Part shown: positions 5,708 to 63,018 of the stretch, one piece after another
Layout of the letters: every line of letters begins with the position of its first letter
Position numbering within the stretch: the first letter of the stretch is position 1
Origin: Candidatus Collierbacteria bacterium
GTDB lineage: Bacteria; Patescibacteriota; Microgenomatia; UBA1400; JACPES01
Length of the DNA: 64,000 nucleotides
NCBI GenBank assembly: GCA_016183365.1
Contig: JACPES010000005.1
Coordinates: forward strand, 5,895-69,894
Reading direction: 5' to 3'
The notes under the pieces: generated by a model
The model's input: the letters and a program-made list of their open reading frames with translations, nothing else
What the model was told of the DNA's origin: nothing
Databases searched by the model: none
Position numbers and translations under genes: made by a program

Positions 5708-5751
5708 ATTACTAGTCGCGATTAATCCTCGGGGAAAGTGTGATTCTTTGT

Positions 5752-13614: not shown

Positions 13615-16170
13615 TTATAACGAACATTTTGAGTATCCACAAGAGTAACAAGTGCTGCACCCACTCTCGGAAGTCATTGCCGCTCCGCATTCCGGACAAT
13701 GGCCGTCGGCCAAATCCTCGGTGATCCGCCGTCTTTCAACCTGATATGCCCTTTGGGACAACGGCGTAATCTTCATCTGACTTTGCATCAGGCGTTGAGA
13801 TTGTTGATTGTTTTTCTCATCTTTCACATCCGCGGCAGTTTTTAATATTTGATTTTCTCTTGATCCGTCGCGATAGACGGTGATGCCTTTGCATCCAAGT
13901 TTCCAAGCGAGTAAATAAGCTTTTTCTACGTCTTTGACTGTGGCGGCACGGGAAAAATTAATGGTCTTGCTGACAGCGTTGTCAGTATATTTTTGAAACG
14001 CGGCCTGCATTTTAACGTGCCAGTCGGGAGAGATTTGGCGGGCGGTGCGGAAGATAGAAGATAAAATAGTCGAATGGTTAAGAGTGTTAAGAGTGTTAGG
14101 ATTGTTATCTACCCGATAACCATCTTTACCATCTCCACCATCTTGCCATCTTTCTATCTCTTTCTTCGCTTTTTCATAATACTTATTCGTATACCTCAAC
14201 CCTTCTTTCTCCACCACGTTTTTTGTATATTCCAAAGCAAAGTATGGTTCTATCCCCGATGAACAACCGGCAATCATGGAGATCGTCCCTGTCGGGGCGA
14301 TAGTTGTTATCGCCACGTTACGCACTTTTCGTCTGCGGCCAAACGGATTCTTGACGCTATTGAAATACGACTGTTTCCAGAGGGGGAATTCCGCCTTTTC
14401 TTTGGATAACTTCTCGCTCTCGTCCCAACTGATTTGCTGAATAAATTTCATGATCGATTCAGCTAATTTTATTCCTTCATCGCTGTCATAGCTTACGCCT
14501 AATTTAACCAACATATCCGCCCAGCCCATCACCCCAAGACCAATCCGCCGGAGTTTATGTGCCATATCGGCAATCTGTGGAATGGGATAGGTTGAGGCAT
14601 CTATGCCGTCGTCAAGAAAGCGGACCGCGGTGCGGATAACCTCTTCAAGACGGGACCGGTTAATATTGTCCAGAACACTCTGAAAACTCTGAAAGCCAGA
14701 CTGTCGGATAATCGGAGAATCGGAATGCCAGATTTTCTGGCTTTCCGGACCCCCGAGTTTTCCGAGTTTTCCGGAATCTTCCCAGAATGGTTTAATCACA
14801 AACTTCGCCAGATTTATGCTACCAAGGTTGCAAACGTCAAAAGGAAACAGAGGCTGTTCACCACATACATTTGTCGCATCTATCCGCCATTTTTTGATTA
14901 GAGGGTTATATTTATTGATAGTATCCAGATAAATCATCCCCGGGTCTCCGGTTAAGTGGGCTAAATTGATCATCTCATTCCATAGCCTCCGGGCCGAAAT
15001 TTTTTGGACCGTTGAGTCGTCGCGAGGATTAACCAATCCCCAGTCGGAATTTTTTTCTACCGCACTCATGAATCTATCAAAAGCGCCGACAGAAATATTG
15101 AAATTGCTAATTTCTCCGTCAACGGATTTGGCGCGGATAAATTCAAAAATATCCGGATGGTCAACGTTTAGGATCCCCATATTGGCGCCGCGGTGTTCGC
15201 CGCCCTGCATCACAATTTGGGTTTCGGCGTCAAACGCTTTCATAAAATTAATCGGACCGGAAGATAAGCCTCCGGAACGGACCGTATCGCCGCGGGGACG
15301 CAAATGAGAAAAATTAAAACCGGTTCCGCCGCCCATTTGATGGATCAGCGCCGCCCATTTGACGGCGTCGAAAATCTTCTCGATTGAATCCTCAACCGGT
15401 AAAACAAAACAATTGGCCAAAGATCCGTTCTGCTTATTTCCTGCCCCCCGGAAATAACACCCGGCCGGAACAAATTCAAAAAAGGTCATAATTTCCAGGT
15501 ACTTGTCCCACCAGTTATGTCTGGAAAGGCCAGGCCTTTTCAAAAAAGGCCTGGCCTTTTTTGATATCTTTTGTTCTACTTCGGCTTTCTCTGTTACAAC
15601 CACAGCGTCTGCGACGCGCCTCATTGCCTCCATGGGTGTTTCGATCACATTCCCCTCTTTATCTTTCCACAAATATCGTTTGGCCATGGCGGCATAGGCG
15701 TTATCCGACATACCAAGGCGAGAAGTGTCTGATAATTGAGAAGTACCAGATACTTCTCGTTGGGCTGCGCGCCGGTTCCGATAAAGAATGTAGGCCTGGG
15801 CCGCATCTTGGTGTCCGGCGGCCAGCAACACCTGTTCGACGATATCCTGAATTTCCTCGACTGTCCACTGATTATGACCGTTGGAACGAATCAGGGTATC
15901 CTCGACGATTTTGGCGAAGCGCTCCGCCTCTTTCCACAACGAAGATTGTTTGTCGGCTTTTTGTCGGGGAACTTCAGTCTCGGCGGCCCGACGGGCAATT
16001 TCGTCAACTCCGGTGATTTGGGAGAATTTTTTTCTTACTTGGGAAACCGCCCACAGCGACTGCCAAGCTGCCATGGTAATTTTGCCGCGGTCGTACTTTT
16101 GTTTCCGGCCGTCGCGCTTGAGGATGGTGTAAATTGGCCTATTGGTTTCTCCGGGTTTTTTATTTGACAT
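13615..16170 (-). CDS. nrdJ: class II (adenosylcobalamin-dependent) ribonucleotide reductase with N-terminal ATP-cone
   Basis: ATP-cone start IYTILKRDGRKQKYDRGKI; RNR core motifs (SLANCFVLP, ATNVCGEQ); C-terminal zinc ribbon CPECGAAMTSESGCSTCYSCGYSKC. Confidence 0.85.
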   Translation of the reverse strand: MSNKKPGETNRPIYTILKRDGRKQKYDRGKITMAAWQSLWAVSQVRKKFSQITGVDEIARRAAETEVPRQKADKQSSLWKEAERFAKIVEDTLIRSNGHNQWTVEEIQDIVEQVLLAAGHQDAAQAYILYRNRRAAQREVSGTSQLSDTSRLGMSDNAYAAMAKRYLWKDKEGNVIETPMEAMRRVADAVVVTEKAEVEQKISKKARPFLKRPGLSRHNWWDKYLEIMTFFEFVPAGCYFRGAGNKQNGSLANCFVLPVEDSIEKIFDAVKWAALIHQMGGGTGFNFSHLRPRGDTVRSGGLSSGPINFMKAFDAETQIVMQGGEHRGANMGILNVDHPDIFEFIRAKSVDGEISNFNISVGAFDRFMSAVEKNSDWGLVNPRDDSTVQKISARRLWNEMINLAHLTGDPGMIYLDTINKYNPLIKKWRIDATNVCGEQPLFPFDVCNLGSINLAKFVIKPFWEDSGKLGKLGGPESQKIWHSDSPIIRQSGFQSFQSVLDNINRSRLEEVIRTAVRFLDDGIDASTYPIPQIADMAHKLRRIGLGVMGWADMLVKLGVSYDSDEGIKLAESIMKFIQQISWDESEKLSKEKAEFPLWKQSYFNSVKNPFGRRRKVRNVAITTIAPTGTISMIAGCSSGIEPYFALEYTKNVVEKEGLRYTNKYYEKAKKEIERWQDGGDGKDGYRVDNNPNTLNTLNHSTILSSIFRTARQISPDWHVKMQAAFQKYTDNAVSKTINFSRAATVKDVEKAYLLAWKLGCKGITVYRDGSRENQILKTAADVKDEKNNQQSQRLMQSQMKITPLSQRAYQVERRRITEDLADGHCPECGAAMTSESGCSTCYSCGYSKCSL
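14671..14790. repeat. ~120-bp palindromic TIR element, in-frame within nrdJ-A
   Basis: CAGAACACTCTGAAAACTC...TTTCCGAGTTTTCCGGAA; same family as the copies in nrdJ-B, nrdJ-C, the two PBP genes and the 60530..62266 membrane-protein gene. Confidence 0.75.
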
Positions 16171-16198
16171 TATCTAGATAGAGCATATAATAAATTTA

Positions 16199-17238: not shown

Positions 17239-19302
17239 TTAGACGCTGCATTTTGACCAACCGCAGCTATGGCAAGTGACACAACCATTTTCGGCAATTA
17301 CCGCAGCTCCACACTCCGGACAGACGGCGGCGGGACCGGAGCCGGGACGCAAAGGCAAATGTTGAATGGCAGAATTTTCATTCGTCATTCGTAATTGGTC
17401 ATTCGTCATTGTATCCTTAGCAAGATTCAAAACCTGATCTTTTTTTGAGCCGTCTCTATAAATAGTAATCCCCTTGCAGCCGAGTTTCCAGGCCAGAATG
17501 TAGGCTTTTTCTACATCTTCAACAGTAGTATTATGGGGGAAGTTAATGGTTTTGCTGATTGAGTTATCAAAATGTTTCTGCCAGGCGGCCTGAATCTTAA
17601 CGTGCCACGATGGAGAAATCTCATGGGTGGTAACAAATATCTTATAAAACCAGCCGGGCAAACCTTCGATGGATTTTAATCCGTATTCCGCGACGTGTTT
17701 CAGAACACTCGGAAAACTCGGAGTTTCAGATAAATCAGAAAGTCGGAGAATCGGAAAATCAGAACTTCTGATCTTCTGATTTTCTGACTTTCTGACATTC
17801 CGGCTTTCCGAGTTTTCAGAGTTTTCCGAAATGACTCTCTTTAGTTCTTCTTCAAACACCGGATCGACCATATATATTTCCTTCGTCGGCCTATTTTTTC
17901 TATCGTCTTCAAAGAATGTTCGTCTTTTTGTGACCAACGAAAAAATCGGCTCTATCCCCGAAGTAGTGTCGGCGAGCATCGCCGTAGTCCCAGTGGGGGC
18001 AATCATGGTAGTAGCGCAGTTTCGCATCGGATGCTTGTCAAAATAAATACTCCTGTCCCAGTTGCCGAAGTTGCCGCGGACTTTGGCCAGTTTCATACTC
18101 TCATTTTGGGCAGTTTCCTGGATGAACTTTGCCAATTTTTCCGAAAGCTCCTCCGCTTGACTAGAGTTGTACGGAATACCTAATTTAACCAACATATGGG
18201 AAAATCCCATCACGCCTAATCCAATGCGGCGGTTGCCGTTTTTGACCATCTGCTCAATTTCGGGAATAGCATAGGTATTAACTTCAATCATGTCGTCGAG
18301 AAACCGGACCCCGAGACGGACGCTCTTTTCTAAGTCTTCCCAGTCAACTCCATTCATTGTTTCCTGTTTCTTGCTTCTTGCTTCTTTTATATGATTCTGC
18401 AAGCAAATACTTGTCAAATTGCAACTCTCGTAGGGCAAAAGTCCGATTTCGCCGCAGGGATTAGTCGCTTCTATCCGTCCAATTTGGGGAGTGGGGTTGT
18501 CGCGGTTAAAAGTATCCAAAAACATCAAACCCGGATCGCCGGTTTGATGGGCGTGGTCAACGATCATTTTGAATAATTTCCGGGCTTTTATCTTTCTCAC
18601 CGGCTCCCCGGTTCTGGGGTTAATTAAATTCCACATCTTATCCGCCTGAACCGCTTTCATAAATTCGTCGGTTACTCCAACGGAAATATTAAAGTTCTTG
18701 ATAGTGCCATCCTCGTCTTTAAGGCGAATAAAGTCTTCAATGTCGGGATGGTCGGCGTTTAAAATCCCGATGTTGGCGCCTTGGCGTTTGGCGCCCTGAA
18801 GAATTTTTGACAGGGCGGCGGAATAGGCGGCCAGAAAGTCCACCGGACCGGAGGCGGCGTTGGGGACATTTTTGACTTTGTCGCCGCGGGGACGGATGCG
18901 GGAAAAATTAAAGCCGGTGCCGCCGTTATTTTTATGGACGACGGCAGCGTCACCCAAGGTTTTGAAAATCGACTGAATGTTGTCTTCGACCGGAAGAACG
19001 AAACAGCTGCTCAATTGGCCGGTGCCGCCGGGGTTACCGGCCTCAAACATGGCCTTGCCGGCGCATACGAATTTGAAATTCACCATCCGGTCGTAAAAGG
19101 CGACGGCAATCTCGGCAACTTTCCCGTTTCCGCCATTCCAATTGACTTCGGCTTTAGCCATATGTCTGGCGACCCGCCACAGCATCTCTCCCGGAGTTTC
19201 GATGACTTTTCCGGACATATCGGTGCGGAGATAACGCTTCTGGGAAATCTTTATGGCAGTTGGTGATAGTTTTGGTTCGATGATAGTCATATGTATAGAC
19301 AA
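17239..19302 (-). CDS. nrdJ: class II ribonucleotide reductase paralog (no ATP-cone)
   Basis: SSCFVLP, ATNPCGEIGL, C-terminal CPECGAAVIAENGCVTCHSCGWSKC. Carries a ~135-bp in-frame palindromic element. Confidence 0.85.
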   Translation of the reverse strand: MSIHMTIIEPKLSPTAIKISQKRYLRTDMSGKVIETPGEMLWRVARHMAKAEVNWNGGNGKVAEIAVAFYDRMVNFKFVCAGKAMFEAGNPGGTGQLSSCFVLPVEDNIQSIFKTLGDAAVVHKNNGGTGFNFSRIRPRGDKVKNVPNAASGPVDFLAAYSAALSKILQGAKRQGANIGILNADHPDIEDFIRLKDEDGTIKNFNISVGVTDEFMKAVQADKMWNLINPRTGEPVRKIKARKLFKMIVDHAHQTGDPGLMFLDTFNRDNPTPQIGRIEATNPCGEIGLLPYESCNLTSICLQNHIKEARSKKQETMNGVDWEDLEKSVRLGVRFLDDMIEVNTYAIPEIEQMVKNGNRRIGLGVMGFSHMLVKLGIPYNSSQAEELSEKLAKFIQETAQNESMKLAKVRGNFGNWDRSIYFDKHPMRNCATTMIAPTGTTAMLADTTSGIEPIFSLVTKRRTFFEDDRKNRPTKEIYMVDPVFEEELKRVISENSENSESRNVRKSENQKIRSSDFPILRLSDLSETPSFPSVLKHVAEYGLKSIEGLPGWFYKIFVTTHEISPSWHVKIQAAWQKHFDNSISKTINFPHNTTVEDVEKAYILAWKLGCKGITIYRDGSKKDQVLNLAKDTMTNDQLRMTNENSAIQHLPLRPGSGPAAVCPECGAAVIAENGCVTCHSCGWSKCSV
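17701..17835. repeat. ~135-bp palindromic TIR element, in-frame within nrdJ-B
   Basis: CAGAACACTCGGAAAACTCGGAG...TTTCCGAGTTTTCAGAGTTTTCCGAA; translated as ENSENSESRNVRKSENQKIRSSDFPILRLSDLSETPSFPSVL. Confidence 0.8.
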
Positions 19303-19332
19303 ATTTTAAATTGTAAATTAACTCTCTTGTCC

Positions 19333-21405
19333 TCATACCGAGCATTTACTCCATCCGCATTCCTGACAAGTTGCGCATCCATCCATCAACGTCAGTTCTC
19401 CCCTGCATTCCGGACACACTTCGTCAGGATTTCCTTTAACCGTTAACCTTTGACCTTTGACCTTCCCCACATTGAGCACTTGCTCTCTCCGGCAGCCGTC
19501 GCGATAAACCGTAATTCCTTTACATCCGGTTTCGAAAGCTAATAAATAAGCGTTTTTAATATCGTCGACTGTGGCCGAATTGGGCAAATTAATAGTTTTT
19601 GATACCGCCGCATCTGTATATTTTTGCCATGCGGCTTGCATTTTAATATGCCATCTGTAGGGAATTTCCATGGAGACACGGAAGATATCTCTTACTTCTT
19701 GCGGAATTTCTTTAATATTTTGGCAACTGCCGGACACAGAGACTCTCTCCAGAACACTCGGAAAACTTGGAACATCAGATAAATCAGAAGATCGGAGTTT
19801 CAGAGAACCAGAATTTCTGGTCGTCTGATTGTCTGATTTTCTGATTTTCCGGCTTTCAGAGTTTTCAGAGTTTTCTGAAATTACACCAACTGCTTTTGAA
19901 AATTCTTCGTTAACTTCTAGCAAACTCGTCTTCCCCAAATCTAAAATATTTTCCCTTCTGTACGCCAAGGCAAACAACGGTTCTATTCCACTGGAACAAC
20001 CGGCGATTATGGAAATAGTCCCGGTCGGGGCGACGGTGTTGACCGTTGAATTACGCATATGAGTGAAACCTTGCTTCTGCCAAACGCTATCTTCGAAAGC
20101 CGGGAAAGAACCACGACTTCTAGCCAGTTCCACCGAGGCGTCGCGGGCAGTATCATGGATAAATTTAGCGGTTTTTTTCGCTAGTTTCAACGCCGCTTCC
20201 GAGTCGTAACGAACCCCCAGTTTAATCAACATGTCCGCCCAGCCCATGACGCCGACGCCGATTTTTCTGGTGGTCAGGGCCATTTTTTTTAATTGGGGAA
20301 TCGGATAGTCGCAGAGGTCGATAACGTTGTCCTGAAAGTGAACCCCGAGACGGACGACCTCTTCTAATCGTTTCCAGTTGATTCTTTCCAGAACACTCGG
20401 AAAACTCTGAGAACCAGAGAAATCGGAATATCGGAGGATCGGAGAATCAGACGATCCGGCCTTCTGACTTTCTGATTTTCTGATATTCCGGCTTTCCGAG
20501 TATTCCGAGTTTTCTGAACTTACAAATCTTCCCAGGTTTATATTCCCCAAGTTGCATGACTCATACGGTAATAGGGCTTGTTCGCCACACGGGTTAGTTG
20601 CTTGATATATCCCTAATTTTGGCGTCGGACAATATTTATTCATGACATCTAAAAACACTAATCCCGGGTCGCCGACTTTCCAGGCCTGGGTGGCGATTAA
20701 ATTCCATAACTCCATCACGTCGATATCTTTTTCGGTGGCGCCGTCGTTGGGGTGAAATAAATGAATAGTCCCCTTTTTGGCTTTGACCTTTTCCATAAAT
20801 TCGTCTGTAGCCCCGACGCTGACGTTAAAATGGTAGAGCGTGGACGGATCTTCTTTGGACATAATAAATTCAACGATGTCCGGGTGATCAACCTTCAATA
20901 CTCCCATCAGGGCGGGGCGGCGGGCGCTGGCCTCGGCGATGGTGGCGGCGGAATAATTAAATAACCGCAGGAAAGAAACGGCGCCGGAACTGATGCCGCC
21001 GGTTGATTCCACCAAAGAACCCCGCGGCCTAAGATTTGTCAGCGGGATTCCAATCCCGCCGCCGGTCCGTAAAATCAGGGCCGCGTTGCGCAGTTGATCA
21101 TAAATATCTTCCAAGGAATCGGATAAAGGCAAAACATAGCAAGCCGAAAATTGTTTATGCTTGCGGCCGGCGTTAAGGAGGACCGAGCCGGAAAGATATT
21201 CCAAATTCGACATGGCCCGATAAAAATCATCGGCGACTTTTTTTATCTCCTGATCCGCTTTATCTCCCTTTACTCTTAGATATTTTTTGTCAGCCGACGC
21301 GATTAAGTTAGCTACCCGTCGGAACATCTGATCAGGGATTTCTTTTGGCAAAAGATAGCCGCGTTTTTTCAAAACTACCAAAGCGTTATCGGATAAATTT
21401 GTCAT
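19333..21405 (-). CDS. nrdJ: class II ribonucleotide reductase paralog (no ATP-cone)
   Basis: SACYVLP, ATNPCGEQAL, C-terminal CPECRGELTLMDGCATCQECGWSKC. Carries two in-frame palindromic elements. Confidence 0.85.
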   Translation of the reverse strand: MTNLSDNALVVLKKRGYLLPKEIPDQMFRRVANLIASADKKYLRVKGDKADQEIKKVADDFYRAMSNLEYLSGSVLLNAGRKHKQFSACYVLPLSDSLEDIYDQLRNAALILRTGGGIGIPLTNLRPRGSLVESTGGISSGAVSFLRLFNYSAATIAEASARRPALMGVLKVDHPDIVEFIMSKEDPSTLYHFNVSVGATDEFMEKVKAKKGTIHLFHPNDGATEKDIDVMELWNLIATQAWKVGDPGLVFLDVMNKYCPTPKLGIYQATNPCGEQALLPYESCNLGNINLGRFVSSENSEYSESRNIRKSESQKAGSSDSPILRYSDFSGSQSFPSVLERINWKRLEEVVRLGVHFQDNVIDLCDYPIPQLKKMALTTRKIGVGVMGWADMLIKLGVRYDSEAALKLAKKTAKFIHDTARDASVELARSRGSFPAFEDSVWQKQGFTHMRNSTVNTVAPTGTISIIAGCSSGIEPLFALAYRRENILDLGKTSLLEVNEEFSKAVGVISENSENSESRKIRKSDNQTTRNSGSLKLRSSDLSDVPSFPSVLERVSVSGSCQNIKEIPQEVRDIFRVSMEIPYRWHIKMQAAWQKYTDAAVSKTINLPNSATVDDIKNAYLLAFETGCKGITVYRDGCRREQVLNVGKVKGQRLTVKGNPDEVCPECRGELTLMDGCATCQECGWSKCSV
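19751..19880. repeat. palindromic TIR element copy 1 in nrdJ-C
   Basis: CCAGAACACTCGGAAAACTTGG...TTTCAGAGTTTTCAGAGTTTTCTGAA. Confidence 0.8.
20391..20520. repeat. palindromic TIR element copy 2 in nrdJ-C
   Basis: CCAGAACACTCGGAAAACTCTGAG...TTTCCGAGTATTCCGAGTTTTCTGAA. Confidence 0.8.
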
Positions 21406-21414
21406 ATTTTCTGT

Positions 21415-21545
21415 TATCGGATTTCAGTTTTCTGTTTTCGGTTTTCTGTTTTCAGGTTGACCGGTTTTCTGTTTGCCAGTTCGAAACCGATAAACTGAAG
21501 ACTGACTAACTGCAAACTGATAGCTGACAACCGAGAACTGATAAC
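21415..21545. repeat. degenerate intergenic copy of the same palindromic element (5' leader of nrdJ-C)
   Basis: tcagttttctgttttcggttttctgttttcagg ... gaaaccgataaactgaagactga. It has GTTTTCTG / CAGAAAAC-type dyad symmetry. Confidence 0.5.
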
Positions 21546-23397: not shown

Positions 23398-23832
23398 TCA
23401 TTCCGTGGACGCGGCGTATTCTTTCAGCCCAATGACCAATCTTGTATCGGCCACTTTTCTAACAAGTTTGGCATCGGCGGAGACCAATGCGGTATTGGCG
23501 GCTTTGGCTAAAGTAAGATAAGAGCCGTCGTATCCCGACAGCTGATATTTTTTGGCTAAAGTCAAACATAATTTATATTCGTCGGCTATCGATAGAAGCT
23601 GTGGTTTTGATTTAAGAAAAAATTTCAGGAATTTCAACGAATTGGAAAAAGTTATTTTATCCCTAGCGACAGCCGTCACTAAAGCATTGACAATTTCGTA
23701 CTCCCATAACAAAGGCGCTAGCAGCGTAACTTTTTTTTCCTCACTGGCTTTAAGAATGGATAGAGCCGCGGACGAGTCCTCTTCGGCAAACAGCCATTTC
23801 AAACAAACCGAGGCGTCAATAACGATATTCAT
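23398..23832 (-). CDS. vapC: PIN-domain ribonuclease toxin VapC
   Basis: MNIVIDASVCLKWL N-terminal PIN acidic motif; 144 aa; immediately downstream of a small RHH-like ORF. Confidence 0.75.
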   Translation of the reverse strand: MNIVIDASVCLKWLFAEEDSSAALSILKASEEKKVTLLAPLLWEYEIVNALVTAVARDKITFSNSLKFLKFFLKSKPQLLSIADEYKLCLTLAKKYQLSGYDGSYLTLAKAANTALVSADAKLVRKVADTRLVIGLKEYAASTE

Positions 23833-33829: not shown

Positions 33830-36355
33830 ATGGCGAAGACAAAACCAAGGAAGAAGGTAGAAAGTAGAAGAAAGAATGATAAGAATAAATCACTATTATT
33901 GTGGCAAAAATTTAAAAAATTTGCCTTTACTTTTGAATTGACACCGGAGAATATCCGGAGATCGTGGACTCGAAAAGGGCTAAGGGCCAAGGGCCAAGGG
34001 CCAAGGGCCAAAACTCGCCGCCGATTTCTTATTTACTCATTAGTATTTATTAGTTTATTCGTAATTATTAGTATTTATTTATTACGGGATATTCCCTCTC
34101 CAACCAAACTCGCTTCCGGCAACTTTCCGGTTTCGACTCAAATTTTCGACCGCAACGGCCAACTGTTGTACGAAATTTACGCCGACCAGAACCGGACGCC
34201 GATTAAACTTAAGGATCTGCCGCCGTTTGTCTTGCAGGCGACGATTGCGATTGAGGACAAGAATTTTTACCGGCATTTTGGGATTGATATTTTTGGAGTC
34301 GCCCGGGCGGCGGTGAAAACCCTGACCGGACAGCGGCTGGAGGGCGGATCGACGATTACCCAGCAATTGGTCAAAATGACGCTGTTGACGCCGGAGCGAA
34401 GTTTGAGCCGGAAAATTCGGGAGGCGGCGCTGGCGGTAGCGACGGAAGTTTTATATTCTAAAGATCAAATATTGGAGATGTATTTGAACCACGCGCCTTA
34501 CGGCGGAACGGCTTATGGAATCGAGCAGGCAGCCAAAAGATATTTTGGCAAAAGCGCCAAGGATTTGAGTTTGCCGGAGGCAGCCCTTCTGGCAGGATTG
34601 CCGCAGGCGCCATCAGCGTATTCGCCATTCGGGTCGCGGCCGGAGAACGCCAAACAACGGCAAAAAGATGTGTTGCGGCGGATGAAAGAAGATAGATATA
34701 TCACTTCCCAGGAAGAGAGGGAAACGGAAGAGGCGGTTTTGGAATATTCTACTGCGAATATTCCGATTCGGGCGCCACATTTTGTGTTATGGATAAAGGA
34801 TTTATTGATTGAAAAATTCGGCCAAAAAACAGTAGAGGGTGGAGGATTAAGTGTGACAACAACGCTGGACTTGGCGATTCAAGAAATGGCTCAAGCCAGC
34901 GTGTCAGCCGAGGTAAAAAAACTAAAAAGTTTGCGGGTGGGCAACGGAGCGGCGTTGGTCACCAATCCGGGGACCGGAGAAATTTTAGCGATGGTGGGGT
35001 CAAAAGATTATTTTGATACGGAAAACGACGGCAATGTCAATGTGACAATTCGGCCGCGCCAACCGGGATCCTCCATTAAGCCCGTTATGTACGCTGGCGG
35101 TTTTTCGACCGGAAAACTTACTCCCTCCACTATGTTGATTGATGCGCCGACCTGTTTCAGAGTTCTCAACCAACCGGATTATTGTCCCCAAAATTATGAC
35201 GGTCAGTCCCATGGTCCGGTTCAAATCAGGTTTGCTCTGGGCAATTCTTACAATATTCCGGCGGTAAAATCCCTGGCATATATCGGCCTGGAGGATATGA
35301 TCGCGACGGCGTCGGCAATGGGAATCTCGACTTTTACCGATCCCTCCCGCTATGGTTTGTCGTTAACCTTGGGCGGCGGAGAAGTTACTATGTCCGATAT
35401 GGCCACGGCTTTTGGAACCCTGGCAAATAACGGGGTAAAAGTGCCGCTAAACCCGTTTTTGAAGATAGAAAATTATAGAGGAGAGGTTTTATACCAACGG
35501 ACTACGGAGGAACGACTAAATGATCTTCGGAACACTCAGAATACTCAGAAAGCCAGAGAATCAGACAATCAGAAATTCGGAGAATCAGAGTCTCTGGACT
35601 TCCGATCCTCAGATTCTCTGATAATCCGGTCCTCTGAGTTTTCCGAGTTTTCTGAAATCATCCAGGCTATTCCGGCAGAAGCAGCATACTTGGTCAGTCA
35701 TATTCTCCTGGACAATAACGCCCGGACCGCCGCATTTGGGCCGAGTTCGCAACTGGTAATACCGGGGCAAGTGGTTTCGGTAAAGACCGGAACTACCAAT
35801 GACCTTCGGGACAACTGGACTTTGGGGTACACCCCGGAACGGCTAGTGGCGGTATGGGTGGGAAATAATGATAATAAACCAATGAACCAAGCTCTGGTTT
35901 CTGGCATCACCGGGGCAGCGCCGATTTGGCACAACATCATGAGACAACTGCTATGGAGTCGAAGGCCTATTTGGCCGGAAAGACCGGAAGGGGTGGTCGG
36001 AAAAGATGTCTGCGTTCTGACCGGTCTCTTACCGACGCCAGGAAATTTATGCGATACTCGGCATGAATTTTTCTGGGATAAGTTCTTGCCCGCGAATAAT
36101 TATCCCCTCCAACGGGAGATCTGGATTCGCAAAGATACCGGGACGCCGATTGATCCCAATATTCCGCTGGACCAGCAAGGAGAGTTAGAATTGCAAAACC
36201 ATACGGTTATTTCCGACCCGCTGGTGCCGGAATTCTGTTTGGACTGCGCGTATCCGGTAATTCAGGAGTTAAATCCCGACGGATCGGTGAAAGAGGAGCG
36301 GATCAATTACCCCGGGTCGGTGATTAACACTACGTCATTGCGAGCCCCGCCGTAG
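33830..36355 (+). CDS. class A penicillin-binding protein (transglycosylase + transpeptidase)
   Basis: EDKNFYRHFGIDIFGVARA, GGSTITQQLVK (GT51); SIKP, SYN, KTGT transpeptidase motifs. Contains a ~135-bp in-frame repeat, and its stop codon lies inside a repeat. Confidence 0.85.
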   Translation: MAKTKPRKKVESRRKNDKNKSLLLWQKFKKFAFTFELTPENIRRSWTRKGLRAKGQGPRAKTRRRFLIYSLVFISLFVIISIYLLRDIPSPTKLASGNFPVSTQIFDRNGQLLYEIYADQNRTPIKLKDLPPFVLQATIAIEDKNFYRHFGIDIFGVARAAVKTLTGQRLEGGSTITQQLVKMTLLTPERSLSRKIREAALAVATEVLYSKDQILEMYLNHAPYGGTAYGIEQAAKRYFGKSAKDLSLPEAALLAGLPQAPSAYSPFGSRPENAKQRQKDVLRRMKEDRYITSQEERETEEAVLEYSTANIPIRAPHFVLWIKDLLIEKFGQKTVEGGGLSVTTTLDLAIQEMAQASVSAEVKKLKSLRVGNGAALVTNPGTGEILAMVGSKDYFDTENDGNVNVTIRPRQPGSSIKPVMYAGGFSTGKLTPSTMLIDAPTCFRVLNQPDYCPQNYDGQSHGPVQIRFALGNSYNIPAVKSLAYIGLEDMIATASAMGISTFTDPSRYGLSLTLGGGEVTMSDMATAFGTLANNGVKVPLNPFLKIENYRGEVLYQRTTEERLNDLRNTQNTQKARESDNQKFGESESLDFRSSDSLIIRSSEFSEFSEIIQAIPAEAAYLVSHILLDNNARTAAFGPSSQLVIPGQVVSVKTGTTNDLRDNWTLGYTPERLVAVWVGNNDNKPMNQALVSGITGAAPIWHNIMRQLLWSRRPIWPERPEGVVGKDVCVLTGLLPTPGNLCDTRHEFFWDKFLPANNYPLQREIWIRKDTGTPIDPNIPLDQQGELELQNHTVISDPLVPEFCLDCAYPVIQELNPDGSVKEERINYPGSVINTTSLRAPP
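35526..35662. repeat. palindromic TIR element in-frame within PBP gene 1
   Basis: GGAACACTCAGAATACTCAGAAAG...GAGTTTTCCGAGTTTTCTGAA; translated as RNTQNTQKARESDNQKFGESESLDFRSSDSLIIRSSEFSEFSE. Confidence 0.8.
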
Positions 36356-36788
36356 GCGGGGCGTGGCAATCTAAAGTCATTGCGAGCGACCGGAGGGAGC
36401 GCGGCAATCTAAAAATTTGATGCAAGAACAGTCCTTCTGTGTTTATTTGATGAGCAATCCCGGCAGAACGGTACTTTATACCGGTGTAACCCGAAACTTG
36501 ATAAAACGGGTATGGCAACATAAAGAGAAAGTCGCTGATGGTTTTACCAAGAAATACAATGTTACCGATATGGTCTATTACGAAATCCTTGATTCACCGA
36601 TTGAAGCAATCGAACGCGAAAAGCAAATTAAGAGTTGGTCGAGAAAAAGGAAAAATCGCTTGGTAGAAGCGGAAAATTCTTCATGGAAAGATTTATACGA
36701 TGAAATCGTATCATGGTGAGTAATGCAAGAGGGATGACGCTAAAGCGTCAGATTGCCACGCCCCGCCGGTAGCGGGGCTCGCAATGAC
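36344..36788. mobile_element. GIY-YIG gene cassette bounded by ~39-bp terminal inverted repeats
   Basis: Left GTCATTGCGAGCCCCGCCGTAGGCGGGGCGTGGCAATCT (36344-36382, plus a second partial tandem copy 36377-36410). Right AGATTGCCACGCCCCGCCGGTAGCGGGGCTCGCAATGAC (36750-36788) is its reverse complement. Confidence 0.65.
36417..36719 (+). CDS. GIY-YIG nuclease family protein (YhbQ/Slx1-like small form)
   Basis: FCVYLMSNPGRTVLYTGVTRNLIKRVWQHKE is a GIY-YIG motif; 100 aa. Confidence 0.7.
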   Translation: MMQEQSFCVYLMSNPGRTVLYTGVTRNLIKRVWQHKEKVADGFTKKYNVTDMVYYEILDSPIEAIEREKQIKSWSRKRKNRLVEAENSSWKDLYDEIVSW

Positions 36789-36797
36789 GATACTTCT

Positions 36798-37292: not shown

Positions 37293-39665
37293 ATGGACAG
37301 AAGGCGCCGCCGCGTTGGTTTTGACGTAGATGTTTTTTCCGGATTCAGGTTATTAGGTAAACCCCTTTATTACTTTCTATTTTTGGCGCTGCCATCCGGC
37401 ATTCTTTTAATTACCAGTCTTGCCGCTAGACTAAAAACTAATTCCCAAAAATATTCAAAAGGGGCCATCAGGAAAACCCGCAAGACTGCCAAACGGCTTG
37501 GTTTTCCAAAAATTGTTATTCCAAAAATTTCATTGCCGCCTATATCGATTTTCTATGCCGCAATTTTTTTATCTATTATTGGCATTCTATGGATGTTTTA
37601 TTTTTATATCTTCAAAGATCTTCCCACCCCTTATGATTTAAAAAAACACCAGCCAAAACTCAGTACCCATATTTTGGACCGCAATGAACAAGAGCTGTAT
37701 AAAATCTATAAGGACGAAAACCGGTCATTGATAAAAATAGATGAGCTCCCGTCATACTTAATTGACGCTACGGTTTCTATCGAAGATAAAGAATTTTGGA
37801 ATCATGCGGGTTTTTCACCCACTGGCATCATTCGAGCAATTTACCACAATTGGTTTATCTCCTTAGCCCTTAGCCCTAGACCCTCGACTCTTGCTACGCA
37901 GGGCGGATCTACCATCACCCAACAGCTAATAAAAAATACATTGTTAACTCCGGAAAAAACTATAAGACGAAAGGTGCGAGAATTAATTCTGTCCGTATGG
38001 GTAGAACGGGTATTTTCTAAAAAAGAAATTTTGGAAATGTATCTTAACGAAGTAAGCTTTGGCGGCACGGCTTACGGAATCCAGGAAGCCTCACAACAGT
38101 ATTTCGGAAAGAATGCCGTCTCCTTATCACTGGCTGAAGCCGCTTTATTAGCCGGTTTACCGGCCGCTCCGACCGCCTATTCTCCTTTCGGAATCAACCA
38201 AGGAAAAGCTAAAGAACGACAAGCCGATGTTTTAAGGAGGATGGCAGAAGACAAAAATATTTCTGCGGAATCAGCGGAAGAAGCCCTAAGGGAAGAACTT
38301 AAATTTTCCCAAAATTCGACCAATATTAAAGCCCCGCATTTTGTGATGTACGTCCGCGACTGGTTGGCTTCAAAGTTTGGAGAGGATATGGTAAACAACG
38401 GCGGCCTTAAAGTTATTACCACTCTTGATCTGGATTTACAGGAATTTGTTCAAAAAACGGTAACTGACGAAGTAGCCAGCCTAAAAAAATTAAAGGTTAC
38501 CAATGGAGCGGCGTTAGTGACTGATCCTAAAAGCGGGGAAATCTTGAGCCTGGTAGGTTCCCAAAATTATTTCGACTTTCAACATGACGGTCAAGTCAAC
38601 GTTGTTTTCCGTCCGCGCCAACCGGGATCGTCCATTAAGCCCATAATGTACGCTGCGGCATTCCAGAAAGGTTTTACCCCGGCCTCGGTGATTCTCGACG
38701 CCCCGATATCTTTTTCAACTCCCGGTTCTAAACCATACAGTCCGGTTAATTACGATGGTAAATTTCATGGCCCGATCCCAATTAGGACCGCTTTAGCCAG
38801 TTCTTACAATGTTCCGGCAGTTAAAGTTCTGTCAACTATCGGAGTTAATATTATGATAGATCAAGGAGAAGCCATGGGGATAAACACCTGGGGCGACAGA
38901 AAAAGGTTTGGTTTATCGCTGACTTTGGGTGGCGGAGAAATTACCATGGCAGATATGGCGGAAGCATACGGAACGATAGCAAATTATGGGGTCTATGTTC
39001 CGCTAAATCCAATACTCAAAGTTGAAAATAGTCAGGGAAAAGTGTTGTTTCAGAAAACTCCGAATAGTCAGAATGTCGGAACGTCAGACAGTCAGACAGT
39101 CGGAAATTCTGATTCTCAGATTTTTCCGAGTATTCCGAACAGGGCTATGCCCGCCGGAGTAGCTTTTCAATTAATTGATATCTTGTCTGACCCGATCGCC
39201 CGAGCTCCGGCATTCGGGACCAGATCAGTCTTAAATATCCCTGGCCATCAGGTGGCGGTTAAAACCGGCACTACCAATAATCTTCGGGACAACTGGACAT
39301 TCGGCTTTACGACTGACTTCGTAGTATCTGCCTGGGTGGGCAATAACGATAATTCTCCGATGAGCTATATTGCTTCCGGAATTACCGGGGCATCTCCGAT
39401 TTGGTCAAGAATTACCCAAGGCATTTTAAGCCAGAGAAAAACTCCGCACGTCTTTCCCCAACCCCAAGATTTAGTGACTATAAAAATCTGCGCTCTAACC
39501 GGACAATTAGCATGCGAAGATTGTCCGGTCCGGGAAGAATTTTTTATTCCCGGGACTGAACCCAAAACCGCCTGCCGTCCGGAGACGATCGATGAAATCA
39601 GACGCAAACAGGAAGAATCAAAAAATAAAGACCGGATTCTGGATGGGGCTGCCTCCAGACGCTAA
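37293..39665 (+). CDS. class A penicillin-binding protein paralog
   Basis: EDKEFWNHAGF, GGSTITQQLIK; SIKP, SYN, KTGT. Contains an ~80-bp in-frame repeat (39061-39140). Confidence 0.85.
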   Translation: MDRRRRRVGFDVDVFSGFRLLGKPLYYFLFLALPSGILLITSLAARLKTNSQKYSKGAIRKTRKTAKRLGFPKIVIPKISLPPISIFYAAIFLSIIGILWMFYFYIFKDLPTPYDLKKHQPKLSTHILDRNEQELYKIYKDENRSLIKIDELPSYLIDATVSIEDKEFWNHAGFSPTGIIRAIYHNWFISLALSPRPSTLATQGGSTITQQLIKNTLLTPEKTIRRKVRELILSVWVERVFSKKEILEMYLNEVSFGGTAYGIQEASQQYFGKNAVSLSLAEAALLAGLPAAPTAYSPFGINQGKAKERQADVLRRMAEDKNISAESAEEALREELKFSQNSTNIKAPHFVMYVRDWLASKFGEDMVNNGGLKVITTLDLDLQEFVQKTVTDEVASLKKLKVTNGAALVTDPKSGEILSLVGSQNYFDFQHDGQVNVVFRPRQPGSSIKPIMYAAAFQKGFTPASVILDAPISFSTPGSKPYSPVNYDGKFHGPIPIRTALASSYNVPAVKVLSTIGVNIMIDQGEAMGINTWGDRKRFGLSLTLGGGEITMADMAEAYGTIANYGVYVPLNPILKVENSQGKVLFQKTPNSQNVGTSDSQTVGNSDSQIFPSIPNRAMPAGVAFQLIDILSDPIARAPAFGTRSVLNIPGHQVAVKTGTTNNLRDNWTFGFTTDFVVSAWVGNNDNSPMSYIASGITGASPIWSRITQGILSQRKTPHVFPQPQDLVTIKICALTGQLACEDCPVREEFFIPGTEPKTACRPETIDEIRRKQEESKNKDRILDGAASRR
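39061..39140. repeat. short copy of the palindromic TIR element in PBP gene 2
   Basis: GTCAGAATGTCGGAACGTCAGACAGTCAGACAGTCGGAAATTCTGATTCTCAGATTTTTCCGAGTATTCCGAAC. Confidence 0.65.
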
Positions 39666-47520: not shown

Positions 47521-47559
47521 GATAAAACAATGGCTAAAATGGTTAAATGGCTACAATGG

Positions 47560-51365: not shown

Positions 51366-51466
51366 TTGGTTGCAAATTTATTAATTATTAAATTGTTATA
51401 TTGCTAAATTTGTTCCGGTACAATCAGCAATTTAACAATCTAGCAATGTAGCAATGTAGCAATTTT

Positions 51467-52513: not shown

Positions 52514-52515
52514 TG

Positions 52516-52911: not shown

Positions 52912-52986
52912 TGTTAGATTGTTAGATTGTTAGATTGTTTTTGTTAACAATCCAGCAATTTAGCAATGTAGCAATTTTACTCGACA

Positions 52987-59824: not shown

Positions 59825-60208
59825 TTAAGCGTTGAAGAATTTTAGGCCCGGGATTCCCTGAAAATGTTTTTTATTTCTGGTCGCTAGCTGAACTTTGAGC
59901 CAGATTGAGGTTGCTCCAATAATAAAATCTGAAGTTTGGATAGCCAATTTCCGTTCCCGCCTAAGTTCGCCGCTAAATCTGGCAAGCACTTTGTCAAATG
60001 TAACAACCTTGAAGCTGTCAATAAATTTCTCGAGGGTGACAGCGGTTTCGGCTGAAGATTTACCGGCAAACAATTCCATCACGGTAATGCTGGAAAGATA
60101 AAGTTCAATTTGGCGTTGTTTTTGCAGCCCGATCAGCGCAGGAAACGATCCCCGTCCGGAGCGGAAAAAATCAATTAATATATCGGTATCCACCAATACC
60201 TTCTTCAT
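59825..60208 (-). CDS. vapC: PIN-domain toxin VapC
   Basis: MKKVLVDTDILIDFF PIN motif. Confidence 0.7.
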   Translation of the reverse strand: MKKVLVDTDILIDFFRSGRGSFPALIGLQKQRQIELYLSSITVMELFAGKSSAETAVTLEKFIDSFKVVTFDKVLARFSGELRRERKLAIQTSDFIIGATSIWLKVQLATRNKKHFQGIPGLKFFNA

Positions 60209-60492
60209 TAACTCTCTCCCAGATGTTTCATATATTCTCTTTCTTTTTTGTTTCTGAAAAGCTTTCTATCGAAAGTAATTTTGCCCACCAATTTTTCTGC
60301 CAGCTCGAGCGCTCTTCCAGCCCTAGCTTCTAAGTCGTCATCCATTTTTGTAACTTTGAAGATTTTCCTGCCCTTGTTTTCAACTTCAACTTCGTAGCCC
60401 TCCAGCGATACCAAACCGGCATACTTGAATAAATCTTTTCTGAATGCGGTAATCGGCACGGTCGTAATCATATGTACATAAGTGTACACCAT
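60208..60492 (-). CDS. putative antitoxin paired with VapC
   Basis: 94-aa ORF abutting the PIN gene on the same strand; the start may be an internal Met. Confidence 0.45.
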   Translation of the reverse strand: MVYTYVHMITTVPITAFRKDLFKYAGLVSLEGYEVEVENKGRKIFKVTKMDDDLEARAGRALELAEKLVGKITFDRKLFRNKKEREYMKHLGES

Positions 60493-60529
60493 CCGTCAGG
60501 TTTGTCAATATCCCCTATAATGACTTATC

Positions 60530-62266
60530 ATGATACCTAAATCCTATCAATGGCTTTTGTGGGGTAGTTTTATTTTTTTCCTGGGGGCAATGCTATTGCG
60601 TCAGGAATCGGCAATAACTCAAGACTTAGGCCGGCATTTAAGATTAGGAGAAATGATTGTGGCCGGCGGAGACGAAAGAAAATGCGCGCTGTTTAGCAAC
60701 TGCCTGACGTTTACACACCCCGACTATCTGTTTGTTAACCATCACTGGGGAAGTGAGATAATCTTTTACCTCATCCATAAATGGGCAGGATTTTCCGGAA
60801 TCATCATTTTCAAAGCAATTATTCTGGGGCTGACGTTTTTAATTACAGTTCTCCATGCATCACAGTTTCTGAACACTCTGAAAACTCAGAGAACCGGAGA
60901 TCCAGAGAATCGGATAATCAGAAAATCAGATATCCGACTGTCCGGCGTTCTGAATTTCCGACAATCTGGATTTCTGAGCATTCCGAGTTTTCCGAACCTT
61001 GCCATCGCCGTCGCGCTGACATTTCTCTCCATCCAAATGATGGCCGATCGGCTAACGACCAGGCCGGAAATTTTTGGATATTTGCTGTTCGCGATATTGT
61101 TTTGGGTGTTGGACAGACGTAAAGAGAGATTGCCACGTCATCCCTCGACAAGCTTGGGACTCCTCGCAATGACGGTAACGACCTCCTTGATAATTTTAAT
61201 TTGGGTGAATTTACATATCTCTTTTATTTTTGGCTTGATTTTGGTTTGGATTTGGGCAGGGAGTCGACTATTAACGTCATTGCGAGGGAACGTTAGCGAC
61301 CGCGGCAATCTCCAAGATCGCCATGTCCCGATTTCATCGGGGCTCTCGATGACTCCGGTGGCGATTGCAACTGCGTCTACTATTGCGTCTACTATGATAA
61401 TCATTTTCAACCCTTCCGGCCTCCGCGGCGCCCTAATGCCGCTATCAATTCTCAAGGATTACGGGTACACCGTCGTTGAAAACATGACTCCGTTTTTCCT
61501 TTCTGCCTTTAAGCCTCAACCGGAATATTGGATTTACACCCTATTGTTGCTAACTGTCACTGTTTTATTAATTATTTCCCCAAAGAAACCGCCTCTCTTC
61601 TCTATCTTGACCTTTTATATCTTTTCTATCTTTCCGTTGATAGCCGTGAGGCACTTGCCGTTTTTTGGCTTGACGACGGTACCGATTTTAACCCTGTTGG
61701 TTGCTGTGAAGTTTCGCAAACTTCACAATGATGAAAAGTTTGCGAAACTGCCGATTCTAGTGGCGAGTAGTTTGCTAATCGCGGCGTTGACCAATCCAAT
61801 TCCGCTCGTTTATGGCAAATTGTCACCGATTGGTTTGACAATAGATTCGCGACACAATCAGGCCATTGACTTTGTTAAGCAAAATAATCTTCAGGGGCAA
61901 ATGTGGAACAATTACGATATCGGCAGTTTCCTGGAATGGGCTATCCCTGAACATAAAACCTTTGTCGACGGACGGCCGGAAGCGTTTCCGGTCGGATTTT
62001 TCCAAGATGTCTATATCCCGATGCAAGAGGATAAAACAGCTTGGGATTTGGTAGCAACTAAATACGATATCCAGTGGATATTCGTAGCCCTGACTGACGC
62101 CACCCCCTGGTTTATCAAATGGTGGCAGATGATCCGAGACCATAAAGATTGGCGAATTGTATATATTGATAACTTCAGCGCTGTTTTGGTCAAAGTCGAT
62201 AGTCAGAACAACTTGATTGGACCTCAAGGGAAAACCAAAATTCTGAACATCAATAGTCTGGATTGA
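60530..62266 (+). CDS. polytopic membrane protein, probable GT-C-fold glycosyltransferase
   Basis: More than 10 TM helices and a C-terminal soluble domain. Contains at least three different in-frame repeat insertions (60868-60990, 61276-61353, 61706-61749). Confidence 0.45.
   Translation: MIPKSYQWLLWGSFIFFLGAMLLRQESAITQDLGRHLRLGEMIVAGGDERKCALFSNCLTFTHPDYLFVNHHWGSEIIFYLIHKWAGFSGIIIFKAIILGLTFLITVLHASQFLNTLKTQRTGDPENRIIRKSDIRLSGVLNFRQSGFLSIPSFPNLAIAVALTFLSIQMMADRLTTRPEIFGYLLFAILFWVLDRRKERLPRHPSTSLGLLAMTVTTSLIILIWVNLHISFIFGLILVWIWAGSRLLTSLRGNVSDRGNLQDRHVPISSGLSMTPVAIATASTIASTMIIIFNPSGLRGALMPLSILKDYGYTVVENMTPFFLSAFKPQPEYWIYTLLLLTVTVLLIISPKKPPLFSILTFYIFSIFPLIAVRHLPFFGLTTVPILTLLVAVKFRKLHNDEKFAKLPILVASSLLIAALTNPIPLVYGKLSPIGLTIDSRHNQAIDFVKQNNLQGQMWNNYDIGSFLEWAIPEHKTFVDGRPEAFPVGFFQDVYIPMQEDKTAWDLVATKYDIQWIFVALTDATPWFIKWWQMIRDHKDWRIVYIDNFSAVLVKVDSQNNLIGPQGKTKILNINSLD
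60868..60990. repeat. palindromic TIR element in-frame in the 60530..62266 membrane-protein gene
   Basis: TCTGAACACTCTGAAAACTCAGAG...GCATTCCGAGTTTTCCGAAC. Confidence 0.8.
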
Positions 62267-63018
62267 CAAAGAGTCAGGTTTCGGTTACCCTCTTTGACAA
62301 GATGACAGAATCTCCCGGAAACAAAAATATCTTAATTGCCCTTTTAGTCGTAGCGGCTTTTTTGATCGGAGCCTTGACGACCGAAGTCCGTTATCTCAAA
62401 AAATCCAATAGCCAAAATAGCCAGTCGCTAAACAACGCCCAAAATGTCGCCAAAGAAGAAAATATCTCCGCCCCGCCGCTGACTGATTCCGACCATGTTT
62501 TAGGCAATCGGAATTCCAGACTGCTATTTATAGTGTATTCTGACCTGGAATGCCCGTTCTGCAAACTTTTTCACCATACCACCAAACAAATTCTGGAAGA
62601 ATATAAGGATAATTTGGCAATTGTATACCGGCATTTCCCCTTGGATATTCATCCAAAAGCCAGGAAGGAAGCTGAAGCGGTCGAATGCGCCCAAGAAATT
62701 GGCAAACCTGATGATTTCTGGAAATTGGTGGATAAAATTTTCGAAGTTACCCCGTCCAACAACGGTTTAAACCCTGACGATCTGCCAAAGTTAGCCATGC
62801 AAATCGGTTTGAATGAAAATAAATTCAAAGATTGTCTGTCCAGTGGGAAATTCGCCCAAAGGGTAGAAAGCGACTATAGTCAAGGTTCTCGAGCCGGGAT
62901 ATCGGCCACCCCCAGTAGTGTCATTATTGATACCAAAACCGGAAAAACTAAAACTATAACCGGCGCTGTTCAGGCAAACCAAATCAAGTCAGTAATAGAT
63001 TCTATGCTAAAAGAATAG
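62263..63018 (+). CDS. DsbA-like thiol:disulfide oxidoreductase
   Basis: N-terminal TM and DLECPFCK CxxC motif. Confidence 0.65.
   Translation: MTKSQVSVTLFDKMTESPGNKNILIALLVVAAFLIGALTTEVRYLKKSNSQNSQSLNNAQNVAKEENISAPPLTDSDHVLGNRNSRLLFIVYSDLECPFCKLFHHTTKQILEEYKDNLAIVYRHFPLDIHPKARKEAEAVECAQEIGKPDDFWKLVDKIFEVTPSNNGLNPDDLPKLAMQIGLNENKFKDCLSSGKFAQRVESDYSQGSRAGISATPSSVIIDTKTGKTKTITGAVQANQIKSVIDSMLKE

Follow-up and report, generated by a model that had tools for sequence, protein, structure and literature searches.

The DNA element at positions 60866-60997 of the 64-kb stretch of Candidatus Collierbacteria contig JACPES010000005.1 analysed here (64,000 nucleotides, hereafter the window) is probably a non-autonomous, stem-only copy of a selfish element of the rRNA intervening sequence (IVS) type, which lacks an open reading frame (ORF) of its own and would be translated within host genes as a tolerated insert. 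This element, e7, lies in the gene of a polytopic membrane protein, and it belongs to a family (family A) with seven members in the window. We regard these seven as ORF-less stems of an rRNA IVS family because the same arms flank genes of the PF05635 family (23S_rRNA_IVP, or S23p; hereafter IVP) in other genomes, some of them inside 16S and 23S rRNA genes.

e7 is an imperfect palindrome of 132 nt. Its first half is a purine-rich array of units (GAACACTCT GAAAACTCA GAGAACCG GAGATCCA GAGAATCG ...), and its second half is the pyrimidine-rich mirror of that array (... TTTCTGAG CATTCCGAG TTTTCCGAA). Thus, A/G-rich 8/9-mers containing TCNGA are followed by T/C-rich ones, with no ORF between the arms. 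There are 12 TCNGA motifs in the 132 nt, spaced by 8, 9 or 16 nt, as against 3.7 per kb in the window outside the elements. The RNA is predicted to fold with -48.3 kcal/mol (z = -5.5), and none of 200 shuffled sequences was equally stable. A preliminary description of this DNA had placed a palindromic element at 60868-60990, inside these bounds and in frame in ORF 60530..62266. The frame is indeed shared, and the peptide is exactly as described there (...LNTLKTQRTGDPENRIIRKSDIRLSGVLNFRQSGFLSIPSFP..., within a translated stretch reading approximately FLNTLKTQ...SIPSFPN). The same description attributed spurious 'SEHSENSENRRS' ORFs to the antisense strand; the ORF in question, 60781..61122, is on the + strand like the host gene and in a different frame, whereas antisense ORFs do yield similar peptides because the e7 DNA is nearly palindromic. 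e7 is not an assembly artefact, since two independent Logan assemblies (SRR12113384 and SRR12113390) are 100% identical to the window across 59049-63209. The database also contains a homologue (P0001) that is 100% identical to the host protein; an exact-protein look-up of the 578-aa ORF gave no match, the database entry beginning 20 residues later. No Pfam family matched the 578-aa protein, and its gene is syntenic with a Collierbacteria locus in the order polyprenyl synthase, e7 host gene, DsbA-like and DUF3105.

The family-A elements have the conserved ends TTCNGAAMACTCNGAAAACTC ... GAGTWTTCNGAGTTTTCNGAA. When up to two mismatches were allowed, the 24-nt end motif TCNGAGTWTTCNGAGTTTTCNGRA matched the window 14 times where 0 matches are expected, and these matches are both ends of exactly seven elements (Table 1), none of which has an ORF between its arms. 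Four of them sit in a tandem series of three minus-strand nrdJ paralogues (13615-21405), which encode class II ribonucleotide reductases and also contain further repeat-derived inserts; only the first paralogue has an ATP-cone. In frame, e2, for instance, would be read as ISENSENSE...SFPSVL. The long copies have folding z-scores of -5 to -9 (e2: -64.5 kcal/mol, z = -8.9), and the most diverged one, e6, has a z-score of -2.5. Rfam at its gathering thresholds reports no family covering any element. The positions of the elements correspond to insertions: at e4, the nrdJ-C product has 47 residues where Thermotoga maritima NrdJ (1XJK) has 5, e3 is likewise an insert, and e5 falls in a loop of PBP1A that varies among the solved PBP1a structures and is expanded in Pseudomonas aeruginosa PBP1a. 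In three pairs (e1/e4, e2/e3 and e5/e6), the two copies are at homologous positions in paralogous genes, a feature that the preliminary description had missed. Therefore, the seven copies need not all be independent insertions. It should be noted that similarity between the copies does not track site homology: e2, e3 and e4 are 83-84% alike regardless of site (e3-e4, 0.84), and the values are 0.68 for e1-e4 and 0.50 for e5-e6. Co-inheritance with gene duplication is thus not the whole story.

The link to the rRNA IVSs, which was also absent from the preliminary description, comes from longer relatives of the family. In at least five genomes (loci L091, L013, L036, L090 and L023), A-rich and T-rich arms with family-A ends flank an ORF of ~121 aa that reads MIRDV.DLEVY...IPANIAEGFAKRS...KLHSIWRSGxF and whose stop codon lies within the first TCTGA unit of the T arm. 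The product belongs to PF05635 (E = 1e-17 and 5e-23). The ORF is frameshifted in two of the five cassettes (L090 and L023), whereas L013, L036 and L091 contain it between arms of the identical type. ORF-less copies outnumber the cassettes, and both forms occur in one metagenome-assembled genome (MAG), JACPLG01, which holds L043, L060, L090 and L102. We also fetched 80 metagenome relatives of the cassette protein (L115-L194), 74 of which had sufficient flanking sequence. An inverted repeat across the PF05635 gene (z >= 4), mostly made of tandem units of 7-9 nt, was present in 60 of these 74 loci, which come from diverse bacteria. The closest relatives have family-A arms, those with 45-48% identity have arms of a second family (family B, see below), and more distant ones have other 7-9-nt units; the unit sequences thus vary by lineage, and several resemble the heptamers of cyanobacterial short tandemly repeated repetitive (STRR) sequences. 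According to Rfam, cassettes lie within the LSU rRNA in L116 (with family-A arms), L139 and L155, and within the SSU rRNA in L117 (with family-A arms) and L125, and these are therefore genuine rRNA intervening sequences. Neither a PF05635 gene, searched for by tblastn with 2 and then with 78 queries, nor an rRNA gene was found in the 64-kb window, and our literature search found no general statement that PF05635 genes sit between inverted tandem-unit arrays.

These observations fit what has been reported for IVSs. In Coxiella, the terminal inverted repeats of the IVS form a stem whose loop contains an S23p ORF, and the number of tandem heptamers varies; RNase III excises this IVS, the origin of which is stated to be unknown (PMC4990558). 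A survey of rRNA insertions in the candidate phyla radiation (CPR) found 23S_rRNA_IVP ORFs in insertions of both 16S and 23S genes, along with many short ORF-less insertions, and reports that excision by RNase III is not followed by ligation (PMC11270868). Copies of IVS-type elements in protein genes are mentioned in neither of these two papers. Homology has been reported between PF05635 and Avd, a protein of diversity-generating retroelements (PMC10053308), and IVP genes have also been found wedged between cas genes (PMC3936711).

The preliminary description spoke of a dispersed family and named a lack of further copies as the observation that would speak against it. This condition was not borne out: a scan of species-representative genomes found the exact end motif in at least 112 loci. 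Among the matches listed there are 35 full palindromic copies with the same ends in 31 loci, with variable interiors of 75-186 nt; most of them are in Patescibacteria MAGs labelled Levy-, Collier-, Davies-, Curtiss-, Ames- or Gottesmanbacteria or Microgenomates, a few of them carrying probably wrong labels. Fifteen of the 35 copies are in frame in long ORFs. The hosts of genic copies elsewhere include MurD, ATP-dependent DNA ligase, LeuRS, GalT, transketolase, thioredoxin reductase, O-antigen-ligase-like membrane proteins and an intein-containing giant protein. One selfish element is also nested within another: at L076 1619-1761 a family-A element lies in frame just past the 'CVTGDS' start of an intein-like (Hint) segment in a surface-protein ORF of 1704 aa. 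The other 20 of the 35 copies, all with strict ends, are intergenic, and the earlier view that the family is not strictly genic thus holds, whereas the example cited for it, in the leader of nrdJ-C, belongs to family B. Scanning viral contigs with the end motif gave 0 matches, and there is therefore no sign of phage carriage. Motif matches in Prevotella/Bacteroidales were set aside, being one-directional tandem arrays without an opposite arm. They form long arrays of a 9-mer (GAGTWTTCNGA) in L003, L009, L014, L025, L027, L039, L047, L075 and other loci of rumen MAGs, often adjoin gene starts, and are probably a separate phenomenon that shares the unit.

Table 1. Elements of families A and B in the 64-kb window and the principal genes that host or adjoin them.
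Feature	Coordinates	Strand	Remarks
e1, family A	14669..14775		107 nt, diverged; in frame in nrdJ paralogue A; site homologous to e4
e2, family A	17699..17830		132 nt; in frame in nrdJ paralogue B; site homologous to e3
e3, family A	19748..19879		132 nt; in frame in nrdJ paralogue C, residues about 502-554
e4, family A	20387..20518		132 nt; in frame in nrdJ paralogue C, residues about 297-343
e5, family A	35526..35656		131 nt; in frame in PBP1A paralogue 33830..36355 (+)
e6, family A	39049..39139		91 nt, most diverged; in frame in PBP1A paralogue 37293..39665 (+); site homologous to e5
e7, family A	60866..60997		in frame in membrane-protein gene
e8, family B	21407..21545		intergenic; ends 1 nt upstream of nrdJ-C ATG (minus strand; start codon ends at 21405)
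nrdJ paralogue A	13615..16170	-	851 aa
nrdJ paralogue B	17239..19302	-	687 aa
nrdJ paralogue C	19333..21405	-	690 aa
Host gene of e7	60530..62266	+	578-aa polytopic membrane protein

All 23 genic copies, the seven in the window and 16 further ones, are free of stop codons in the frame of the host gene. Typical copies are open in only 0-3 of the six frames. The window copies are open in 1-4 of the six frames each, and the joint chance of the observed result would be about 3e-4 if the frame were irrelevant. We also deleted in silico the 20 non-genic copies and read the six strongest cases of fused ORFs in detail. Fused ORFs arise only where the deletion removes the stop codon of a neighbouring gene. 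In five of the six cases the copy lies between the stop and the start of co-directional genes with very short spacers (the element begins 3-15 nt past the stop, unless the upstream ORF runs into it and ends there, and the following ATG is 2-7 nt away), and in the sixth (L109) it lies at the end of an ORF without an adjacent start codon. Neither split genes nor a stop-containing copy inside a gene were found in this test. Given the stop-free host frames and the lack of split genes, read-through translation is the likely fate of the genic copies. It is favoured over removal from the RNA because excision by RNase III, which is not followed by ligation, would impose no constraint on the frame. That genic copies are seen only in stop-free frames at tolerant loops would be a matter of survivorship.

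The host protein was aligned with 22 homologues, and those that are distantly related (~30% identity) lack the e7 segment. In orthologues with ~60% identity the same loop holds a family-A element (P0006), 'NKGPAFLKRPGL', 'SKGPTLENPGLDL' or an 'RGSVSDRGN...LAMT' peptide. At the DNA level, a family-A element is found at the e7 codon position in L113, and L114, the syntenic Collierbacteria locus, has an unrelated perfect palindrome, AAAGGCCCGGCCTTTTTAAAAAGGCCGGGCCTTT, in frame at the e7 site. The palindrome occupying the site in this Collierbacteria orthologue ('NKGPAFLKRPGL') is of the GC-rich AAAGGCCNGGCCTTT...AAAGGCCNGGCCTTT type, which is present at 746-779 in L114 and in the window at 11402-11434, 15526-15558 and 41925-41979; the copy at 15526-15558 shares the reading frame of nrdJ paralogue A, where it reads 'KARPFLKRPGLS'. 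The e7 host gene also contains, in frame, ORF-less pieces of another repeat at 61275-61354 and about 61118-61173 ('SLRGNVSDRGNL...GLSMT' and 'KERLPRH...LLAMT'). The same type of repeat occurs as a 40-nt inverted repeat (36333-36372 and 36750-36789; CGTCATTGCGAG...CTCGCAATGACG, 90% complementary) that flanks ORF 36417..36719, a GIY-YIG gene of 100 aa (PF01541, E = 2e-15) between the two PBP1A genes. This adds a second example in which a stem bearing a gene is accompanied by in-frame copies that consist of the stem only.

Among known systems, the closest to family A are the IVSs with S23p/IVP genes of Coxiella, Leptospira, Brucella and the CPR. They share the long stem formed by terminal inverted repeats and the arms of tandem 7-9-nt units, the variable number of GACAGAT heptamers in the Coxiella IVS being comparable to the arm units of family A. 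Moreover, the loop of full-length members contains a PF05635 ORF, and 16S and 23S rRNA genes harbour relatives whose arm ends are identical. The window copies differ in having no ORF and in lying outside rRNA, the family being found in protein genes or operon spacers, and excision by RNase III, harmless in rRNA, would destroy an mRNA. Of the features by which an IVS is recognised, e7 has the stem-forming inverted repeats but not the rRNA location or the PF05635 ORF in the loop, an ORF that many IVSs lack. In its genomic behaviour, family A is analogous to the Rickettsia palindromic elements (RPEs), although we do not claim that it is one of them. RPEs, reportedly described by Ogata et al. in 2000, are said to be about 100-150 nt long, dispersed in a small genome, and present in frame and stop-free in housekeeping genes as well as between genes. 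Family A resembles them in being palindromic, in frame (7/7 window copies and 16 further copies) and located at loops relative to homologues. It differs in that it belongs to another phylum, with no sequence relationship expected, in that its interior is a regular array of TCNGA 8/9-mers, and in that it has an identifiable gene-carrying parent, the IVP cassette in rRNA, whereas we know of no autonomous partner of the RPEs.

The likeness to bacterial MITEs (miniature transposable elements with inverted repeats) such as Correia, ERIC and Nezha consists in short, non-coding inverted repeats that outnumber a longer, gene-carrying relative and are co-transcribed with their neighbours. However, family A has no target-site duplication, its longer relative encodes a four-helix-bundle IVP protein instead of a transposase, and its inverted array spans the whole element and not just the tips. 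With neither a target-site duplication nor descent from an insertion sequence with a transposase acting on those ends, a classical MITE was rejected. Cyanobacterial STRR sequences consist of tandem 7-nt units, often form hairpins, and are also inserted in structural RNA genes. Many arms around the metagenome PF05635 genes look STRR-like, whereas taxa and unit sequences differ; the literature search found neither a link between STRR sequences and IVP genes nor in-frame STRR insertions in proteins. Three further candidates were rejected. PARCEL elements are coding DNA with dyad symmetry that has spread between genomes (PMC2996958), but they form tandem amphipathic domains of 25 residues in proteins of unknown function and have no intergenic or rRNA copies, whereas family A consists of single inserts of ~130 nt in housekeeping enzymes. 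The REP/BIME elements are GC-rich palindromes of 20-40 nt with a GTAG/CGTC tag and an association with RAYT (PMC3733652); an AT-rich element of about 130 nt with TTCNGAA ends and no GTAG/CGTC tag does not fit. Finally, TIGR-Tas systems are characterised by a Nop-domain Tas gene next to a long array whose 36-nt units contain two ~9-nt spacers (PMC12045711), whereas the periods observed here are 8, 9 and 16 nt in a single palindrome, and the elements are located inside nrdJ, PBP1A and membrane-protein genes.

Based on these data, the following scenario may be proposed. In the full-length form, a pair of inverted arrays built of 8-9-nt TCNGA units flanks the PF05635 gene of ~121 aa. This form resides in 16S and 23S rRNA genes and operon spacers of Microgenomates/Patescibacteria, tiny groundwater bacteria, and gene-less short copies are scattered through the same genomes. 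The short copies may have moved with the IVP protein acting in trans. Within protein genes, copies would survive only where their orientation and frame lack a stop and the loop tolerates an insert, and a genic copy would be co-transcribed with its host gene and translated as a hydrophilic insert of ~44 residues. By analogy with the stems of rRNA IVSs, the -48 kcal/mol hairpin in the mRNA is a candidate RNase III substrate.

Several points weigh against this interpretation. No target-site duplication was visible by inspection at the junctions of e1-e7, of L113 or of the intergenic copies, whose flanks are merely AT-rich. No transposase was found, the longer relatives carrying only the PF05635 gene. 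Mobility is thus argued from distribution alone, and a trans-acting partner in the source genome has to be assumed because the window has no PF05635 gene. The stem is not visibly maintained: self-complementarity is 0.59-0.70 in register and still 0.44-0.61 at 8-nt shifts, indicating that the palindrome is largely a symmetry of the units, and Watson-Crick pairing at the N of TCNGA, which is a purine in one of the arms and a pyrimidine in the opposite one, is 0.48 versus the 0.47 expected by composition. Translation of the insert, as we infer it, is read from the open frames only. Descent may have run either way, with a cassette losing its ORF or an ORF entering a pre-existing hairpin. Lastly, the e7 loop always holds some palindrome in the orthologues and three pairs of paralogues share their sites, which could point to a benefit of the hairpin instead of neutrality.

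This last possibility, that the hairpin is kept for the benefit of the host with a replaceable sequence, as an RNase III target or a translational pause that tunes expression, co-translational folding or membrane insertion, seems unlikely to us. It would account for the loop of the ~60%-identical orthologues, filled with a family-A element, a GC-rich palindrome or palindrome-derived peptides, as well as for the sites shared within e1/e4, e2/e3 and e5/e6, and the related rRNA stems are RNase III substrates (PMC4990558). However, the distant homologues and T. maritima NrdJ do without the insert, and shared sites are equally explained if few loops tolerate inserts of 40 residues, the PBP1A site being variable in solved structures. 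Nor was base-pair covariation detected at the variable N of TCNGA, and the predicted fold is slightly weaker for genic than for intergenic copies (-0.367 vs -0.404 kcal/mol/nt, p = 0.03). A conserved RNA structure was dropped as an explanation, given that a shift by one unit keeps most of the complementarity and that the N positions pair at the level of composition. As there is no sign that the stem is maintained, we read the element as selfish or neutral DNA.

Very improbable, in our view, is the removal of the element from the mRNA with rejoining of the ends, which would make it an intervening sequence of protein genes that never appears in the protein. The arms of this element also occur in bona fide intervening sequences of rRNA, which RNase III excises, but an mRNA that has been cut and not ligated (PMC11270868) cannot be translated through, and the frame would be irrelevant, whereas 23/23 genic copies are open and no stop-containing copy was found inside a gene. 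There is equally little to be said for the view that no mobile element is involved, the palindromes being low-complexity coding sequence made by slippage or hairpin-templated expansion, or having spread only by duplication of their host genes. Consistent with such an origin, the window is rich in tandem repeats with 7-9-nt periods, the interior units vary in number and sequence, and three pairs of copies sit at homologous sites of paralogues. However, the similarity between copies does not follow site homology, and conserved ends of about 20 nt recur in genes unrelated to each other and in both orientations, as well as in spacers, rRNA genes and many MAGs of different Microgenomates lineages; this cross-genome distribution already largely refutes it. 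The stem-only copy of an IVS-type element thus remains the explanation that we prefer for e7. A wider hypothesis is speculative: PF05635 proteins and inverted arrays of 7-9-nt units might form a widespread class of mobile elements without transposase, in which the protein recognises the units and mobilises both cassettes and stems. The 60 of 74 PF05635 loci with arms have a bearing on it, as has the relationship between arms and proteins. The correlation between IVP clade and arm sequence is weak overall (rho 0.08, reached by 1 of 300 permutations), and arm similarity rises with IVP identity only above about 50-60%. With a trend confined to close relatives, specific recognition is inseparable from shared ancestry, which alone would also produce it.

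The element upstream of nrdJ-C differs from the others. The preliminary description counted eight copies in 64 kb, the eighth being a decayed copy at 21415-21545; seven of these belong to family A, and the eighth (e8) is a member of a sister family, family B. It is a palindrome of tandem heptamers (TTTTCNG / CNGAAAA) with the ends CGGTTATCAGTTCTCGG...CCGAGAACTGATAACCG. The idea of a decayed family-A copy was rejected on account of its single TCNGA motif, its heptamer units, its T-rich arm coming first and its own conserved ends, which the family-A end motif does not match even with 2 mismatches. Its end AACCGAGAACTGATAAC, an exact 17-mer, recurs in a similar element of L085, and its arm type also flanks IVP genes in L122-L124. 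It, too, has no ORF between its arms. With regard to the suggested test of whether intergenic copies overlap promoters or terminators, e8 has no overlapping terminator-like site, and a weak promoter-like match is present only upstream of it. Also upstream of nrdJ-C is a truncated PIN-domain fragment (21745-21978), which resembles a decaying duplicate of an intact PIN (VapC-like) gene at 23398..23832 (76% DNA identity between 21843-22005 and 23430-23592).

The genome is unusually rich in short tandem repeats: of the 104 rows that Tandem Repeats Finder lists for the 64 kb, most have a period of 7-9 nt, and many lie within genes. Two further families of tandem-unit palindromes occur in the window, at 44482-44576, 45665-45747 and 47529-47565 with 48000-48045, and at 51378-51466, 52901-52978, 52503-52532 and 10536-10573. 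The genes of both transketolase subunits contain AATGGYTA-type 9-mers, which also flank rpiB on either side, and ATTGYTA-type 8-mers lie in two intergenic spacers, at the overlap of an oxidoreductase and a NifU-like ORF (52503-52532) and in a TPR gene. These palindromes have the architecture of families A and B, with no IVP partner seen; the window ORFs flanked by such repeats (rpiB, nifU and transketolase subunits) were considered as IVP genes and rejected, being ordinary genes. Apart from these repeats, Rfam reports two tRNAs and a group I intron in the window. The intron (2053-2228, +; 66 bits vs a gathering score of 50) has no clear host gene, lies near a tRNA-Met (1611-1685, -), and is accompanied by small ORFs without a Pfam match. 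A tRNA at 5750-5822 (-) has the anticodon TAT and is a tRNA-Ile according to ARAGORN. Such a tRNA is uncommon in bacteria, in which AUA is usually read with a modified CAT anticodon.

In summary, the findings join two matters that have been treated apart, the intervening sequences that fragment rRNA and the palindromic selfish DNA that would be translated inside essential proteins: in-frame palindromic DNA of the RPE kind proves here to be a gene-less form of an rRNA intervening sequence. Insertions in rRNA are a hallmark of Patescibacteria, and their insertions in protein genes are new in that we did not find them described in the literature searched. In practical terms, such inserts inflate or distort alignments of CPR proteins and gene calls, as exemplified by the spurious overlapping ORF 60781..61122, and they can be mistaken for novel domains. 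That IVP genes lie almost always between inverted arrays of short units provides a handle on the old question of the nature of IVSs and the role of the S23p/IVP protein, and it brings IVSs, IVP/Avd-like proteins and hairpins of short tandem units together in a single picture that can be tested. If true, a transposase-less class centred on this pentameric four-helix-bundle protein would give rRNA IVSs, STRR-like hairpins and RPE-like inserts a common origin.

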